Source: a virus
Lineage: Duplodnaviria > Heunggongvirae > Uroviricota > Caudoviricetes
Direction: 5' to 3' (one strand)
Virus record (IMG/VR): IMGVR_UViG_2869976549_000005
Length of the DNA: 41,251 bases
This document shows, one piece after another, positions 5,685-39,514 of this stretch. The number at the start of each line of letters is the position of its first letter. The stretch's first letter is position 1. The notes under the pieces were generated by a model. That model had not been told where the DNA came from. It searched no databases and worked only from the letters and a program-made list of their open reading frames with translations. The translations under genes and the position numbers were made by a program.

Positions 5685-5748
5685 TGAGGTAGCCTGAGTT
5701 TAACGGACACTCCTTCCTGAAATAGAATGGCATCAGAAGGAGCTAATA

Positions 5749-25632: not shown

Positions 25633-27486
25633 TTATGATGATGCCGGTGCATTTATCTCCAGCACCAGACTTTCTATCTCAACGCCATACGCTGCATTTT
25701 TGGTAATATCCGTCAGCGTCAGCGCATTCAGCCCCAGTGTCAGACTGTCTTTTATGACCTGGAATGCCGGGCCAGCCACTCCATTCAGTTTCGGAGTAAC
25801 CGTGGCACTGCCGGCGGTGAACACCAGCTCCAGCGTCAGCCAGTCGTTACTGTAATTCCCGAACTCGCCCAACTTTGTGTTTCCTGCTTTCTTGTGATGC
25901 ATCAGATTCAGTTTGCCGTCTGTGGTCTGGGTGAAGAACGACATCAGGAACGGGTTACCAGTCCCGGTCATCGCCACGACGTCAGGTAACGCTACATCGG
26001 TATACAGATAAATTCCCAGACCGAACTGGTTGTTGGTCAGTGCGCCTGACAGTCGAAACTTACAGCTCAGTCTGCCACCCCGTGTCAGCAGGGAGACTGC
26101 GTCATCCACCGGGCGCGTCAGGGACCAGGCTTTATTGCTCTGCTTGGTGATCTTAAATACACCATCTGACAACTGAACTCCGCCATTCTTAATGCTCCAG
26201 CCCTGCGCAGCAGCGTCTCCGGCTGTCGGCAACAGGGAGATTGTGCGTATGGATGCATCTTCAGACGGCCCCGATGGCGTGTCGCCGCCGGGCGAGGGTT
26301 TGATTTCCGGTGCCTTACCACTAATGAAGGCTAAGGTGCGACCGGCTACGTTCAGAATAGCAGTTGCCATACGATCGGGAATAATGCCACGACGCGCCCA
26401 TGAGCTGAAATGCGTCGGGCGATTTGATGATACCCAGTTTTTGTTCGTTCGGGATGCCGAACCGTAATAACCAGACCCGGCAATATCAGGATCTTCTGAC
26501 GGGTTGTTTGTCGGTGTATTAACTCCGCTACCATCGGTCATAAAGGGAACAAAATAAATCTGCTGGGATTCTTTACCTTTATATGCACCATATACCACTT
26601 CATATTGCGTACCGTGTTCTTGTTTCCACGCGTATGTCGTGTCGCCACAAATCCAGGGGACTGATGCCGGACTTCCACCGTGACACTGCGCCGCCAGCCC
26701 GGCAAGGTCAGCACGGAACTGCTGTACCATTGCAAGAAATGCTGCTGGCTGCTGGGCGTAACTGGCATTCGTCATATCGAATTCCCCCTGCATCCAGCAT
26801 ATCGCCAGCAAAACGTTTTTCGGGTTTTTCTGCAATGCTGCCTTCGTGCGGAAAAGCAGATCCTGATATAACGGCTTACCCACTCCCCAGCGAGCCGAAT
26901 CCTGACTGGCCCCCGTGGACTCGCTGAATGTCCCCTCCGTGCCCTGGGTGAATGCCGAACCACCACGACAGCATGGTACCAGCAGGATCCCCGCATTATT
27001 AGGGATATACGGAAGCAGTTTTTTGGCAATATGTAAGCCCTGTCCGACACAGCCGTACTGCCCTTTGCTCAGGTCAGCCCGGGGATGGTTAATCGTACTC
27101 ATATCCTGAACATCATGCAGACAATGGTCAGCAGGAATGATGTCGTTAAATACGCATACTTCACCACCGGGAGTCACTGTGTTACGACGGGCCAGTTGCT
27201 TAATGCGCGGATGGGGCGCATCGTATGAATCCGGAAGCGGAAGACCTTCACCGTAAGCCATGGCATTGGATTGCCCGGCCAGTACGATGACGTAGTACCA
27301 CTCCGGCTCAGTTGCACCACTGACGACCACATCACCTTCTGCTGCAATCGCCTGCATCAGGGTATAAGGGGTTATGGCCACCGGACTACCAAACGGCTGC
27401 CAGCCCTCCTTCAGTTTTTGTGTCAGTCGTTTCGCAAGGTCTGACGGCGATGCCGCCCTGACCACGTCATAGTGTTTAAATGCCAT
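25633..27486 (-). CDS. nanS: prophage NanS-p-like sialate O-acetylesterase (SGNH hydrolase with N-terminal DUF1737-like region), 617 aa
   Basis: GQSNAMAY esterase motif; size and position (upstream of the holin, downstream of the tRNA cluster) as in Stx-converting phages. Confidence 0.6.
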   Translation of the reverse strand: MAFKHYDVVRAASPSDLAKRLTQKLKEGWQPFGSPVAITPYTLMQAIAAEGDVVVSGATEPEWYYVIVLAGQSNAMAYGEGLPLPDSYDAPHPRIKQLARRNTVTPGGEVCVFNDIIPADHCLHDVQDMSTINHPRADLSKGQYGCVGQGLHIAKKLLPYIPNNAGILLVPCCRGGSAFTQGTEGTFSESTGASQDSARWGVGKPLYQDLLFRTKAALQKNPKNVLLAICWMQGEFDMTNASYAQQPAAFLAMVQQFRADLAGLAAQCHGGSPASVPWICGDTTYAWKQEHGTQYEVVYGAYKGKESQQIYFVPFMTDGSGVNTPTNNPSEDPDIAGSGYYGSASRTNKNWVSSNRPTHFSSWARRGIIPDRMATAILNVAGRTLAFISGKAPEIKPSPGGDTPSGPSEDASIRTISLLPTAGDAAAQGWSIKNGGVQLSDGVFKITKQSNKAWSLTRPVDDAVSLLTRGGRLSCKFRLSGALTNNQFGLGIYLYTDVALPDVVAMTGTGNPFLMSFFTQTTDGKLNLMHHKKAGNTKLGEFGNYSNDWLTLELVFTAGSATVTPKLNGVAGPAFQVIKDSLTLGLNALTLTDITKNAAYGVEIESLVLEINAPASS

Positions 27487-27721
27487 GAATCCTCCCGGCC
27501 GGGATAATATTGTGAGTAAAATAAGGAGCGGGCTGAAGTCCGGAAGTTACAGGACAATGGCAGAAGAGAGACGACAGCCCGCAATTCGAAAAAGACCGCG
27601 CAGTTGCGCAGAGTGATTACTATGGGGTATTATTCGCCAGCTGAAATATTACTTCACGTTTTATTGTTTATTCCTTGCCGCCCGCGTCTCCCAGCGCGGG
27701 CTTTTTTTGCCCACAAGAAAA

Positions 27722-27950
27722 CCCCTCCGGAGAGGGGCTAAAGCCGCGTATCTGTATCATCATGCACATGGTGCCGGGTGCCTCCCGGTGAGTTCAGCCC
27801 GGTGCCACTAAACCCGCGTCATTCTCGTTTTGATAATCAGAGATTATACCGTCACCAGTCGCCCCTCCGCTCAGGGGGATTCACCATGCGAAATTTTTTT
27901 AACAAATGCCCAGTCTGACAGGCAACTGTCAACTTACTGAATTGTGAGCA
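27722..27950 (-). repeat. structured non-coding element, paralogue A
   Basis: Shares hairpin blocks with 29475-29685: CCCCTCCGGAGAGGGG, TGCCGGGTGCCTCCCGGTGA, CGCCCCTCCGC-CAGGGGGATTCACCATGC, AACTGTCAAC, CTGAATTGTGAG. Confidence 0.6.
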
Positions 27951-28084
27951 ACATAGCATTTAACGGGGAACCTGTTTTCTGCAGTAAAAAGGCCCACCGG
28001 AGCGGATGGGCCTGGAAGGATGAGGTAGCCTGAGTTTAACGGACACTCCTTCCTGAAATAGAATGGCATCAGAAGGAGCTAATA

Positions 28085-28387
28085 ATGAGCAGAAAAACCC
28101 AACGTTACTCTAAAGAGTTCAAAGCCGAAGCTGTCAGAACGGTTCTTGAAAATCAACTTTCGATCAGTGAAGGCGCTTCCCGATTATCTCTTCCTGAAGG
28201 CACTTTAGGACAATGGGTTACCGCCGCCAGAAAAGGGCTCGGTACTCCTGGTTCCCGCACGGTGGCTGAACTGGAATCTGAAATTCTGCAACTGCGTAAG
28301 GCGTTAAATGAAGCTCGCCTTGAGCGAGATATATTAAAAAAAGCAACAGCGTATTTTGCACAGGAGTCGCTGAAAAATACGCGTTAA
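28085..28387 (+). CDS. IS600 OrfA
   Basis: 100 aa. Confidence 0.9.
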   Translation: MSRKTQRYSKEFKAEAVRTVLENQLSISEGASRLSLPEGTLGQWVTAARKGLGTPGSRTVAELESEILQLRKALNEARLERDILKKATAYFAQESLKNTR

Positions 28388-28422
28388 TCGAACAATGGCG
28401 ACAACAATTTCCCATTGAAGCG

Positions 28423-29241
28423 ATGTGTCAGGTATTTGGTGTATCCAGGAGCGGTTATTACAACTGGGTACAGCATGAACCCTCAGACAGAAAACAAAGT
28501 GATGAGCGGCTAAAACTGGAGATTAAGGTGGCACATATCCGCACTCGCGAAACATATGGAACCCGGCGGCTCCAGACGGAGCTGGCAGAGAATGGCATCA
28601 TCGTTGGTCGTGACCGACTGGCACGTCTTCGTAAGGAGCTAAGGCTACGCTGTAAGCAGAAACGCAAGTTCAGAGCGACTACGAACTCGAACCACAATCT
28701 GCCAGTTGCGCCAAATCTGCTGAACCAGACGTTCGCTCCTACAGCACCAAATCAGGTCTGGGTGGCGGACCTGACGTATGTTGCCACACAGGAGGGATGG
28801 TTGTACCTCGCTGGCATCAAAGATGTTTATACGTGCGAAATTGTCGGCTACGCCATGGGAGAGCGCATGACAAAAGAGCTGACAGGTAAAGCCCTGTTTA
28901 TGGCGCTCAGGAGCCAGCGCCCACCTGCCGGGCTAATCCACCACTCTGATCGAGGTTCACAGTACTGCGCATACGATTACCGGGTCATACAGGAGCAGTC
29001 TGGTCTGAAAACATCAATGTCGCGTAAAGGTAACTGTTACGACAACGCTCCGATGGAAAGCTTCTGGGGAACGCTGAAAAATGAGAGCCTGAGCCACTAT
29101 CGTTTTAATAACCGGGATGAAGCCATCTCAGTAATACGGGAATACATTGAGATTTTCTACAATCGTCAGCGTCGTCACTCTCGTCTGGGGAATATCTCCC
29201 CGGCAGCCTTCAGGGAAAAATATCATCAGATGGCTGCTTAA
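28423..29241 (+). CDS. IS600 OrfB
   Basis: 272 aa. Confidence 0.9.
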   Translation: MCQVFGVSRSGYYNWVQHEPSDRKQSDERLKLEIKVAHIRTRETYGTRRLQTELAENGIIVGRDRLARLRKELRLRCKQKRKFRATTNSNHNLPVAPNLLNQTFAPTAPNQVWVADLTYVATQEGWLYLAGIKDVYTCEIVGYAMGERMTKELTGKALFMALRSQRPPAGLIHHSDRGSQYCAYDYRVIQEQSGLKTSMSRKGNCYDNAPMESFWGTLKNESLSHYRFNNRDEAISVIREYIEIFYNRQRRHSRLGNISPAAFREKYHQMAA

Positions 29242-29474
29242 AAAAAGAACAAATGGTAGTGTCCGCTATTGCCAGTACACCTCAGGATAGCGGTCATGTG
29301 ATGCCGGTTTCCCGGTAACTCAGCACCGGTATCTGAGTCAACGTTTTCTCTACTGGGTCATTTCCGATACGCCCTGCCTGCTGACAGGCTTTCATCACAT
29401 CTGAAAATATAGCACCCTGACTGATACTGTAGTACCTAAGGTTCCAGAAACTGTGATGTATCCGGCACAGAAAA

Positions 29475-29685
29475 GCCCCTCCGGAGAGGGCTGGAGAGTG
29501 GCGCTATGTGCCATTGCATGATGCCGGGTGCCTCCCGGTGAATTCAGTACCAGCACCTGAATCCGCGATTATCCCATATACCTACTCGCTGATTGCCCCT
29601 CCGCACAGGGGGATTCACCATGCCAGTTTCTTTTAACAAACTCCCCGCAAAACAGACAACTGTCAACCGTCTGAATTGTGAGACA
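29475..29685 (-). repeat. structured non-coding element, paralogue B
   Basis: See 27722-27950; conserved hairpins with compensatory loop differences. Confidence 0.6.
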
Positions 29686-29688
29686 TTT

Positions 29689-29714
29689 AAAAAAAAGGCC
29701 CGCAAAAGCGAGCC
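29689..29714 (-). terminator. intrinsic terminator just 3' of tRNA-Arg(UCU)
   Basis: Minus-strand GGCTCGC-tttt-GCGGGCC hairpin followed by T9. Confidence 0.5.
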
Positions 29715-29728
29715 AGGGAAAATAAGTG

Positions 29729-29805
29729 TGGCGCGTTGTACTGGATTCGAACCAGTGACCGATTGCTTAGAAGGCAATTGCTCTGTCCGGCTGAGCTAAC
29801 AACGC
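29729..29805 (-). tRNA. argO: tRNA-Arg (anticodon UCU), 77 nt, CCA encoded
   Basis: Cloverleaf deduced by hand: acceptor GCGUUGU/ACAACGC, anticodon loop CUUCUAA, T-loop GGTTCGAATCC. Confidence 0.8.
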
Positions 29806-29843
29806 ATGATGCAGATAATGGACCGCCATCGGGGACTTGAACC

Positions 29844-31181
29844 CATAAGCGCTAACTTAAGGGTTGTGGTATTACGCCTGATATGATTTAACGTGCCGAT
29901 GAATTACTCTCACGATAACTGGTCAGCAATTCTGGCCCATATTGGTAAGCCCGAAGAACTGGATACTTCGGCACGTAATGCCGGGGCTCTAACCCGCCGC
30001 CGCGAAATTCGTGATGCTGCAACTCTGCTACGTCTGGGGCTGGCTTACGGCCCCGGGGGGATGTCATTACGTGAAGTCACTGCATGGGCTCAGCTCCATG
30101 ACGTTGCAACATTATCTGACGTGGCTCTCCTGAAGCGGCTGCGGAATGCCGCCGACTGGTTTGGCATACTTGCCGCACAAACACTTGCTGTACGCGCCGC
30201 AGTTACGGGTTGTACAAGCGGAAAGAGATTGCGTCTTGTCGATGGAACAGCAATCAGTGCGCCCGGGGGCGGCAGCGCTGAATGGCGACTACATATGGGA
30301 TATGATCCTCATACCTGTCAGTTCACTGATTTTGAGCTAACCGACAGCAGAGACGCTGAACGGCTGGACCGATTTGCGCAAACGGCAGACGAGATACGCA
30401 TTGCTGACCGGGGATTCGGTTCGCGTCCCGAATGTATCCGCTCACTTGCTTTTGGAGAAGCTGATTATATCGTCCGGGTTCACTGGCGAGGATTGCGCTG
30501 GTTAACTGCAGAAGGAATGCGCTTTGACATGATGGGTTTTCTGCGCGGGCTGGATTGCGGTAAGAACGGTGAAACCACTGTAATGATAGGCAATTCAGGT
30601 AATAAAAAAGCCGGAGCTCCCTTTCCGGCACGTCTCATTGCCGTATCACTTCCTCCCGAAAAAGCATTAATCAGTAAAACCCGACTGCTCAGCGAGAATC
30701 GTCGAAAAGGACGAGTAGTTCAGGCGGAAACGCTGGAAGCAGCGGGCCATGTGCTATTGCTAACATCATTACCGGAAGATGAATATTCAGCAGAGCAAGT
30801 GGCTGACTGTTACCGTCTGCGATGGCAAATTGAACTGGCTTTTAAGCGGCTCAAAAGTTTGCTGCACCTGGATGCTTTGCGTGCAAAGGAACCTGAACTC
30901 GCGAAAGCGTGGATATTTGCTAATCTACTCGCCGCATTTTTAATTGACGACATAATCCAGCCATCGCTGGATTTCCCCCCAGAAGTGCCGGATCCGAAAA
31001 GAAGAACTAACTCGTTGTGGAGAATAACAAAAATGGTCATCTGGAGCTTACAGGTGGCCATTCGTGGGACAGTATCCCTGACAGCCTACAAAACGCAATT
31101 GAAGAACGCGAGGCATCGTCTTAACGAGGCACCGAGGCGTCGCATTCTTCAGATGGTTCAACCCTTAAGTTAGCGCTTATG
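29844..31181 (+). mobile_element. IS186 (IS4 family), 1338 bp, inserted at a GGGG-N7-CCCC site with ~12-bp target duplication
   Basis: Termini CATAAGCGCTAACTTAAGGGTTG...CAACCCTTAAGTTAGCGCTTATG; GGGACTTGAACCC duplicated on both sides. Confidence 0.9.
29893..31173 (+). CDS. IS186 transposase
   Basis: MNYSHDNWSAILAHIGKPEELDTSARNAG... 426-aa ORF. Confidence 0.9.
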   Translation: MPMNYSHDNWSAILAHIGKPEELDTSARNAGALTRRREIRDAATLLRLGLAYGPGGMSLREVTAWAQLHDVATLSDVALLKRLRNAADWFGILAAQTLAVRAAVTGCTSGKRLRLVDGTAISAPGGGSAEWRLHMGYDPHTCQFTDFELTDSRDAERLDRFAQTADEIRIADRGFGSRPECIRSLAFGEADYIVRVHWRGLRWLTAEGMRFDMMGFLRGLDCGKNGETTVMIGNSGNKKAGAPFPARLIAVSLPPEKALISKTRLLSENRRKGRVVQAETLEAAGHVLLLTSLPEDEYSAEQVADCYRLRWQIELAFKRLKSLLHLDALRAKEPELAKAWIFANLLAAFLIDDIIQPSLDFPPEVPDPKRRTNSLWRITKMVIWSLQVAIRGTVSLTAYKTQLKNARHRLNEAPRRRILQMVQPLS

Positions 31182-32998: not shown

Positions 32999-33820
32999 TT
33001 ACCTAGTTACCTTTTTTAACTGCCGCTCAGCCCATGCTTCTTCAATATCAAACCGGGTCACCAGCGCATCATAAAATTTCTTAACTGTTTTTTCCCATGA
33101 CGCGCGTGTTATCTGGTTTGTCACCTCGCATATAGCATTAAATGCCTCCGTTGATGGTAGTCTTTCATAGCCACGACCACCACAACGCTGGCAGTCTCTG
33201 ATAACAGGCATACCACGTTTTACCGACTCTTCACGATGAATGGCGACACCACGCCCACGGCAATCCTTACAGGCGGTGGAAACCTCACCCTTTCCGCCAC
33301 ACTCCGGACAGGCAACTTTTACCACCTCCCTGACTTTTTTCCATTCTTCCCAGTAAGACGGATACACACCTTTCGTACACTTTGCCCATACCGGCGGCTT
33401 ACCATCCGGATACTGGATCTTGTTTGTAAAAACCTCGCTTTCAATAAATTTTTTTCCGTGACAGCAGGGGCACTGTTTTTTGCTCGCCGCGCTACGGGCA
33501 TAATCTTCAAACGCATACGAAGCCATAATACGCATCACTGCCGGTTTTATTTCTGCCGGGAGTTTTCTTAACGCCGCCACGCGATCACACCGACTGAGTG
33601 CATATTCTGTCAGCAATTCTGTTGCCCGCTCTCTGTCATTCATACTAATGCCCATTTTCCCAAGGAACGCAGAAACCCCCATCTCAGCCCGATTCTGTGT
33701 CATGCCCTGCGCGGCCATCACATCAGTGATACTCAGCGCATCTTTCGACGTTGAGGCCGATGCATCAGTCAGGCCGGGGGATTTTGGGGAGTAGTATTTC
33801 GGTAAATCTTCCAGTTTCAT
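32999..33820 (-). CDS. putative late antiterminator Q (273 aa) with four CxxCxGxG zinc-finger motifs
   Basis: Assigned mainly by position (between RusA and pR'/tR'); motifs CPCCHGKK, CPECGGKG, CKDCRGRG, CQRCGGRG. Confidence 0.5.
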   Translation of the reverse strand: MKLEDLPKYYSPKSPGLTDASASTSKDALSITDVMAAQGMTQNRAEMGVSAFLGKMGISMNDRERATELLTEYALSRCDRVAALRKLPAEIKPAVMRIMASYAFEDYARSAASKKQCPCCHGKKFIESEVFTNKIQYPDGKPPVWAKCTKGVYPSYWEEWKKVREVVKVACPECGGKGEVSTACKDCRGRGVAIHREESVKRGMPVIRDCQRCGGRGYERLPSTEAFNAICEVTNQITRASWEKTVKKFYDALVTRFDIEEAWAERQLKKVTR

Positions 33821-35833: not shown

Positions 35834-35989
35834 TTACTCCTCAGGTTCGTAAGCTGTGAAGACAGCGACCTCCGTCTGGCCGGTTCGAATTCGTACCTCG
35901 CAGAGGTCTTTCCTCGTTACCAGTGCCGTCACTATGACGGTTAAACAGATGACGATCAGGGCGATTAACATCGCCTTTTGCTGCTTCAT
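35834..35989 (-). CDS. hok: Hok/Gef-family type I toxin (51 aa; RelF/HokD-like)
   Basis: MKQQKAMLIALIVICLTVIVTALVTRKDLCEVRIRTGQTEVAVFTAYEPEE; AAGGAG RBS; in-frame upstream extension to 36046. Confidence 0.85.
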   Translation of the reverse strand: MKQQKAMLIALIVICLTVIVTALVTRKDLCEVRIRTGQTEVAVFTAYEPEE

Positions 35990-36200
35990 AGCCTGCTTCT
36001 CCTTGCCTTTCGGCACGTAAGAGGCTAACCTAGATTTGCCGTTCATAGATTGAGCCTCAGATTAATGTTAAGCGTCTTGCCGGACGCGTAATGTTAACTG
36101 GGGCTTTTCTCTATCTGCCTTTTGGTGTTCATGCCTGAGACAGATAGCCTCAAGCACCCGCTGCAATTCTACTTAACTCTCCTTTTCCCGCAAACCGTTT

Positions 36201-39450: not shown

Positions 39451-39514
39451 TATTAGCTCCTTCTGATGCCATTCTATTTCAGGAAGGAGTGTCCGTTAAA
39501 CTCAGGCTACCTCA

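Follow-up and report, generated by a model that had tools for sequence, protein, structure and literature searches.

Convergent pairs of Hfq-bound small RNAs (sRNAs) have been described in eight prophages of O157 Sakai, where they lie between moron genes and a conserved downstream ORF (Tree et al., 2014; PMC4104026). One of these pairs, located 3' of stx2B, consists of EcOnc27 and AsxR (PMC4104026). EcOnc27 corresponds to sRNA103 of EDL933 and is an Hfq-bound RNA encoded 3' of stx2B in both O157 Sakai (prophage Sp5) and EDL933 (PMC4104026, PMC7873438); overexpression of sRNA103 is reported to raise fimZ and espA (PMC7873438, PMC12711010). Among the RNAs cross-linked to Hfq were EcOnc05 (~222 nt) and EcOnc27 (~235/247 nt), and the 247-nt form of the latter was destabilised without Hfq (PMC4104026 supplement). 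STnc100 has been located 75 nt past the stx2 operon (PMC12370729), and EDL933 has 11 annotated STnc100 copies, all of them with transcriptome reads and one northern-positive (PMC5331693). A common origin of STnc100 and PasD was proposed by Zhu, Shabalina and Storz (bioRxiv 10.64898/2026.05.13.724894), and supplementary material on PasD places its predicted seed directly ahead of the terminator (PMC8550237 supplement). The STnc100 family, its place next to stx2, the convergent sRNA pairing and the multi-copy nature of these genes are already published. What is new is small: a third paralogue that had gone unrecognised, the break made in it by IS600 and the boundaries of the slot at base level.

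The locus compared here with these systems is part of a virus record of 41,251 nt (IMGVR_UViG_2869976549_000005; the whole stretch is hereafter called the window). A preliminary description made from its sequence had pointed to two elements, A and B, flanking a copy of IS600. Taken together, the observations are very probably explained by A and B being STnc100 paralogues with a broken paralogue (C) between them, housed in the moron slot of the late operon and giving rise to Hfq-bound RNAs. The analysis directly established which family the elements belong to, their structure, terminators and synteny, the insertion and the equivalence of the slot with that of stx2AB.

Elements A, B and C

Element A (27709-27918, minus strand; span of the Rfam model) matched the STnc100 covariance model RF02076 with 161 bits (E 2e-36, model positions 1-206 of 206), a score equal to that of the UTI89 copy. 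Element B (29463-29652, minus strand), of the EcOnc05/EcOnc06 type, matched the same model over its full length (1-206 of 206) with 123.6 bits and an E-value of 8e-27. Both scores passed the gathering score of 47 bits, the curated threshold for membership. Because both elements matched the full model, their likeness to each other is not due to chance; aligned on the minus strand, they had 175 identical positions over 240 and 220 nt, and the blocks in common form the helices. On these matches A and B were assigned as two paralogous genes of the prophage sRNA family STnc100. The hairpin-forming blocks that had been said to be shared by the two were thereby borne out, as was the claim that each ends, on the minus strand, in a GC hairpin with a U-tract: the terminator scan placed intrinsic terminators at 27739-27720 for A (AGCCCCTCTCCGGAGGGGTT followed by TTCTT) and at 29492-29474 for B, the latter with a 1-nt deletion relative to the UTI89 copy. 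In total, 14 terminator-like sites were found in the region against 2.4 expected, one per unit included.

Upstream of A, a 5' leader or promoter block (CTCACAATTCAG..GTTGACAGTTG) occupied 27919-27948 on the minus strand, with the breakpoint of homology to the Stx2a phage ASU11 at 27947. The same block (repeat D1) preceded B at 29653-29682 on the minus strand, and it was conserved upstream of most units among 120 viral loci. A sigma-70 promoter scan gave no strong minus-strand site in the region. Two promoter candidates were noted by eye, TTGNCT followed after 18 nt by TGTTAAAAA ahead of GCAUGG, and a TTAAAT-like hexamer immediately ahead of the CTCACAATTCAG block; both are conserved and neither passes the simple scan. 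Markers of the 5' end disagree, since the Rfam start lies 29 nt ahead of GCAUGG, the RNA-seq start of PasD lies at GCAUGG and the northern sizes are longer. A start at the CTCACAATTCAG block would fit the lengths seen on northern blots for EcOnc05 (~222 nt) and EcOnc27 (~235 nt). It would give B a length of 220 nt (29682 to 29463), which nearly matches the coordinates of the preliminary description.

IS600 (IS3 family, 1264 bp) was recognised by its junctions, inverted repeats and IS3-family transposase ORFs at 28021-29284 on the plus strand, inside C and between target duplications of GGA at 28018-28020 and 29285-29287. The insertion separates the 5' body of C (29288-29424, minus strand; comprising P1 AUGUGAUG/CAUCACAU of this diverged STnc100-like unit, its three hairpins and the 3' strand of P1) from its 3' end (27984-28020, minus strand) and terminator (28013-27990), which were mapped from the UTI89 locus (L001) and by the terminator scan. 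The uninterrupted site is present in UTI89. After removal of IS600 and one GGA, the sequence from nanS-p to the tRNAs aligned in one piece, at 99% identity, with UTI89, S88, IHE3034 and numerous further ExPEC genomes; because this match runs without a break, IS600 is a simple insertion, as had been proposed together with the GGA duplication. The original distance between A and B was not ~180 bp, as first estimated; it is 257 bp by the coordinates used for that estimate or 277 bp when the Rfam ends are taken. A and B are real elements, and the interval between them is no mere spacer but a third, diverged copy with IS600 inside it, so that two elements flanking an insertion sequence became a B-C-A array. 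The locus with the identical IS600 junction was found at 99.9-100% identity in six NCBI chromosomes, including CP104423.1, CP049185.1 and CP066810.1, which are without the extra insertion sequence that the window carries at 29845-31180. Species-representative genomes, scanned for the exact junction, gave no match. The prophage is full of insertion sequences, and some of its sRNA copies may be decaying.

In UTI89, the 277 bp between A and B hold the intact C (L001 6498-6671), which matched STnc100 over model positions 1-206 with 30.1 bits (E 1.7e-4), below the membership threshold passed by A and B; C in phage PhiR5_2 scored 30.0 bits. C nonetheless retains every family helix, built from other bases. 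The long-range helix reads AUGUGAUG/CAUCACAU compared to CAUGGUG/CACCAUG in the family, the hairpins consist of GCCUG/CAGGC, GACUCAG/CUGAGUU and CCGG/CCGG, and a terminator of its own ends the unit; the minimum-energy fold reproduces the STnc100 architecture. Two variants of C, ~91% identical, re-form the first hairpin and the terminator with different bases, and the long-range helix of the PhiR5_2 variant gains a C-A mismatch. Of 5,426 complete E. coli genomes, 673 carried C, and among the matches listed no feature was annotated beneath it. Judged from model match and helices, C is a third, diverged STnc100-like paralogue, broken here by IS600. A bolder and doubtful suggestion is that C represents a working, diverged STnc100-like sub-family missed by the Rfam threshold, and that arrays of the B-C-A type are modular sRNA cargo competing with stx2AB. 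If so, tandem arrays would combine a conserved scaffold with swappable 3' seed stretches and rival stx2AB for the moron slot.

Gene order and the stx2AB slot

Along the minus strand, the order was Q (32999-33820), a DNA methylase gene, the tRNA cluster, a terminator, B-C-A, a convergent plus-strand RNA candidate, nanS-p and the holin gene. The cluster, itself split by a second insertion sequence (29845-31180), ends with tRNA-Arg(TCT) at 29729-29805 (minus strand; ARAGORN, Rfam). It is followed by a terminator at 29697-29714 (minus strand) that is common to Stx2 phages and forms the upstream edge of the variable slot. The conserved downstream neighbour is a NanS-p-like esterase gene (25633-27486, minus strand), assigned by the Pfam domains DUF1737, SASA and DUF6645 on an identical protein. 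A, B and C are oriented in the direction of late transcription of an stx-less lambdoid prophage. Their location between Q with the tRNAs and the lysis genes, in the lambdoid late region, is that of STnc100, and the same order was found in UTI89, ASU11, phi296 and IMG/VR loci.

Facing A, a candidate convergent sRNA of the EcOnc08/21/42 type spans 27604-27708 on the plus strand and has a terminator at 27680-27701 followed by a T-run. The EcOnc08/21/42 probe matched 28 of 31 positions at 27604-27634, and the 3' end of an EPEC sRNA from the E2348C_1409-1408 intergenic region matched 27655-27708. An identity of this neighbour with AgvB or AsxR (51-60 nt, 3' region ..GCCCGAACCCACTCGGGCUUUU) was rejected: the RF02702 and RF02703 models gave no match at E up to 1 in 27400-29900, and AsxR aligned at 11 of 51 positions.

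Both the placement of the elements between the tRNA cluster and the NanS-p-like gene and the absence of stx had been stated in the preliminary description and were upheld by these coordinates and by a search of the window with Stx2A and Stx2B, in which the best tblastn match had an E-value of 0.46. The arrangement of a Stx-converting toxin locus, with stxA and stxB between the tRNAs and nanS-p, is thus lacking in the window. The Stx2a phage ASU11 has the order Q, methylase, tRNAs, stx2A, stx2B, one A-type STnc100 copy, nanS-p and holin. Homology between the window and ASU11 extends from the tRNA through the post-tRNA terminator (29844-29688) and then starts again at the leader of A, from 27947 downward. 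The gap between these blocks is filled in ASU11 by stx2AB, flanked by 53 nt upstream and 45 nt downstream, and in the window by B+C. Since homology ends after the post-tRNA terminator and resumes at the leader of A, stx2AB and B+C are interchangeable in the slot and, judging by the alignment, are alternative fillings of it. This agrees with the original proposal that the region is the stxAB position of Stx phages.

Among the 120 viral loci of the IMG/VR survey, most had the order tRNA, one unit, nanS-p; a unit-C-unit arrangement occurred in 11 and stxA-stxB-unit in six. The expectation of A/B-like sequence in the stx flanks held on one side: an A-like unit with conserved structure occurs at the 3' flank of stx2, but B-like sequence was absent from the 5' flank in all six stx loci, and no unit lay between a tRNA and stxA in any of them. 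ExPEC prophages carry the uninterrupted tRNA-B-C-A sequence at 99% identity, and a search of 5,426 complete E. coli genomes found at least 80% of it in 352.

Conserved fold and alternative readings

Each unit folds as a conserved leader followed by a long-range helix, GCAUGGUG/CACCAUGC, which closes a junction of hairpins: CCCCU/AGGGG, a variable arm, GGRUUCAG/CUGAAYUC and CCGGG/CCCGG. After the junction come a variable single-stranded stretch and a Rho-independent terminator with a U-tail. This is the consensus fold of STnc100, a long-range helix around hairpins with a 3' terminator hairpin and U-tail. On the minus strand of A, the P1 helix pairs a 5' strand at 27882-27889 with a 3' strand at 27767-27773, and the hairpin CCGGGAGGCACCCGG lies at 27774-27788. 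In B, the corresponding positions are 29616-29623, 29517-29523 (with one G-U pair) and 29524-29538.

The 120 viral loci with a conserved core were reduced to distinct units, and covariation was analysed on 27 diverse members. In the four conserved helices, 97.1% of cells were paired, compared to 38-49% when the partners were slid by 1-3 columns. Changes on both sides occurred in 12 pairs against 3.4 in shuffles, and none of 500 shuffles reached the observed value; the third helix had compensatory changes in seven of its eight pairs. The fold of the A/B/C family is supported by these compensatory changes, and the structured character ascribed to the elements at the outset was confirmed across the 27 members. 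The minimum-energy z-scores of A, B and C were weak (-1.0 to -2.6). The minimum-energy fold of B departs from the family fold, and, compared to the UTI89 copy, one pair in the long-range helix of B has changed to G-U and its terminator stem has lost 1 nt.

The elements could instead act in cis, as a series of terminators or insulators or as qut/nut-like sites against leaky late transcription, with Q-modified polymerase reading through and the RNAs as by-products. Four successive minus-strand terminators (post-tRNA, B, C and A) do lie in the path of the late transcript, and a short regulatory RNA, StxS, is known to be formed by early termination at tR' in Stx phages (PMC7547250). Such a role in place of sRNA function is nevertheless quite improbable, because the conserved part is a structured scaffold of ~130 nt with compensatory changes, far beyond what a terminator needs, homologues of the units are stable Hfq-bound RNAs and the PasD relatives have many RIL-seq partners. 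In lambdoid phages, pR' and qut are found just downstream of Q. With Q at its present position, qut would be expected at a pR' far upstream, more than 2.7 kb from B, and boxA and boxB motifs were absent from A, B and C; a qut/nut identity was rejected on these grounds. The units may have an additional insulating role.

We consider it very unlikely that A, B and C are non-functional duplications or scars of recombination left by exchange of a toxin or other cassette. Such an origin would be in keeping with the Stx2-phage homology breakpoints exactly at unit edges, with the mosaic leader, centre and tail modules of family members, with the score of C below the Rfam threshold and with the degradation of the prophage by insertion sequences. 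It was rejected because A and B are intact, full-length genes that match the whole STnc100 model, their helices are maintained by compensatory changes, the arrangement is kept at 99% identity in hundreds of genomes and homologues are expressed; even C, despite the C-A mismatch in PhiR5_2, re-forms its first hairpin and terminator with different bases between its two variants. From the three options first put forward, namely a small-RNA pair, qut/nut-like structures and recombination scars, the small RNAs stand, as a trio with C, and the other two were discarded.

A short ORF had also been described as conserved over 10-11 codons in both elements and as probably incidental. The ORF from the conserved ATG has 11 codons in A, 25 in B, 17 in ASU11 and eight in PasD2; this varying length favours the view that it is incidental and contradicts a conserved length in A and B. 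The ATG lies within the long-range helix and the next codons within the first hairpin, so that RNA structure, not coding, explains the conservation of this region. That the conserved ATGGTGAATCCCCCT starts a small protein gene, with the units as short mRNAs, is hardly tenable: although A, B, ASU11 and PasD all keep the ATG and the first five codons (MVNPP), and some STnc100 copies of EDL933 have ribosome footprints with coverage values up to 3.2 (PMC5331693), ribosome coverage of other EDL933 copies is very low, the ATG is not preceded by any Shine-Dalgarno-like sequence, and the peptides of 11 (A), 25 (B), 17 (ASU11) and 8 (PasD2) residues have no likeness past residue 5-9.

Proposed working and comparison with known sRNAs

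By homology, A and B are probably Hfq-dependent trans-acting sRNAs, given the identity of the EcOnc05 probe with B and the published northern blots and Hfq cross-linking of EcOnc05, EcOnc06 and EcOnc27; we infer their expression, Hfq binding, seed position and targets from these relatives. Each unit would produce a separate Hfq-bound RNA in the lysogen, in which the conserved scaffold would confer stability and base pairing with host or phage RNAs would fall to the variable 3' stretch. This stretch, which runs from the long-range helix to the terminator, varies in discrete types among family members, and since it also holds the position of the predicted PasD seed, it is the likely pairing region. 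A and B share nothing in this stretch (UGCAUGAUGAUACAGAUACGCGGCUUUAG in A, CAAUGGCACAUAGCGCCACUCUCCAG in B), so different targets would be expected. Family members are mosaics, one unit for example having the centre of A and the tail of B. In an induced lysogen, polymerase modified by Q would be expected to pass the unit terminators and continue into nanS-p and the lysis genes.

For annotation, the assignment provides names for two unannotated genes of the prophage and shows that IS600 breaks a third paralogue. The base-level boundaries indicate that one slot can take either stx2AB or extra sRNA units as cargo, and the exchangeable 3' stretches point to a way in which prophages may vary the targets of their sRNAs.

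With respect to Rfam STnc100 (RF02076), A and B were alike in helices, terminator and prophage late-region context, with no difference of substance; C, at only 30 bits, falls under the threshold of 47. PasD1 and PasD2 of EPEC E2348/69 have the leader, long-range helix and first hairpin (GCAUGGUGAAUCC.CCU..GGAGGGG) in common with A and B, and likewise lie between Q and the esterase gene. This likeness concerns the 5' half alone, whereas PasD has a 3' half, a seed (UGUGAG) and a terminator of its own, and the PasD loci gave no STnc100 match at the gathering score. An identity of A and B with PasD was rejected, as UGUGAG, which in PasD precedes a GGCUGCGCA..GCGCAGCC terminator, is absent from A, B and C and only the 5' half corresponds. 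AgvB and AsxR (RF02702, RF02703) share this moron site and, in EHEC, face STnc100-type RNAs as their convergent partners (PMC4104026), but differ from A and B in being 51-60 nt long and on the opposite strand.

The closest counterparts of B are EcOnc05 (Sp4) and EcOnc06 (Sp17) of O157 Sakai, a comparison made with their northern probes: the EcOnc05 probe matched B at 35 of 35 positions (29560-29594) and the EcOnc06 probe at 34 of 35. No probe in the list of Tree et al. matched the A-specific parts. In Sakai, EcOnc05 faces EcOnc08/21/42, whereas in the window the EcOnc08/21/42-like candidate adjoins A, not B. The EcOnc27 probe, which corresponds to the 3' stretch in one type of STnc100 tail, is not found in A or B (best 18 of 35), so the targets of EcOnc27 should differ from theirs. 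EcOnc27/sRNA103 is nonetheless of the same family as A and has the same place relative to nanS-p, each facing a convergent sRNA; where the EcOnc27 locus has stx2AB, the present locus has B+C.

Disruption of the prophage by insertion sequences

The left end of IS600 occurs in four copies in the window, three in forward orientation at 5685, 23294 and 28021 and one in reverse orientation ending at 39514, indicating that insertion sequences have left the prophage heavily disrupted and probably defective. Additionally, within the phage tRNA cluster, the second gene for tRNA-Arg is split by an IS4-family insertion sequence (29845-31180; transposase ORF at 29893-31173) that probably resembles IS186, with a target duplication of about 13 bp. 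NCBI chromosomes that are otherwise identical do not carry this insertion. Other curated RNA families in the window included isrK (733-807) and a C4 antisense RNA (831-918), both on the plus strand, and the sok antitoxin RNA on the minus strand (35984-36159), which adjoins hokD in the same relative position as in UTI89.

Sequence variation and modular build of the STnc100 genes

Comparison of B, the STnc100-family sRNA gene at 29463-29652 on the minus strand, with the copy in the UTI89 locus (L001, 6710-6900) showed two differences: a C-to-T change in the window's B that converts one pair of the long-range helix to G-U, a variant also seen in other family members, and a 1-nt deletion that shortens the terminator stem. 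The scores against the STnc100 model were 123.6 bits for the window's B and 136.3 bits for the UTI89 copy.

Across the IMG/VR loci carrying the family core (L006-L125, e.g., L086 and L018), three modules reassort among STnc100 members, namely the leader, the central arm, and the 3' stretch with the terminator. One unit combines the centre of A, the second STnc100 gene of the window (27709-27918, minus strand), with the tail of B, another joins the tail of A to a different centre, and some members carry a PasD-type tail on the STnc100 scaffold.

The conserved leader block, at 27937-27948 upstream of A and 29671-29682 upstream of B (both minus strand), begins with CUCACA, a motif described in published work as the shared target site for the seed of PasD (UGUGAG). 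This may be a chance occurrence, as is possible for a 6-mer, and would be relevant only with a transcribed leader and in the presence of a PasD gene; no PasD gene was found in the window.

A convergent sRNA candidate facing A

Opposite A, a plus-strand sRNA candidate was located at 27604-27708, with a start possibly near 27515 and a promoter-like site at 27480-27508. Its strong terminator (27680-27701) is followed by T7. A further terminator-like hairpin (CTGCGCAACTGCGCGG followed by TCTTTTT; 27596-27611, minus strand) lies between A and the NanS-p-like esterase gene, within the candidate. The anti-sRNAs AgvB and AsxR did not match the candidate. The northern probe for EcOnc08/21/42 was identical to it at 28 of 31 positions, and the candidate also matched the EPEC E2348C_1409-1408 intergenic sRNA candidate at the latter's 3' end. 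The EcOnc08/21/42-type RNA was reported to be ~271 nt long in Sakai; a plus-strand RNA of that length would overlap the start of nanS-p in antisense.
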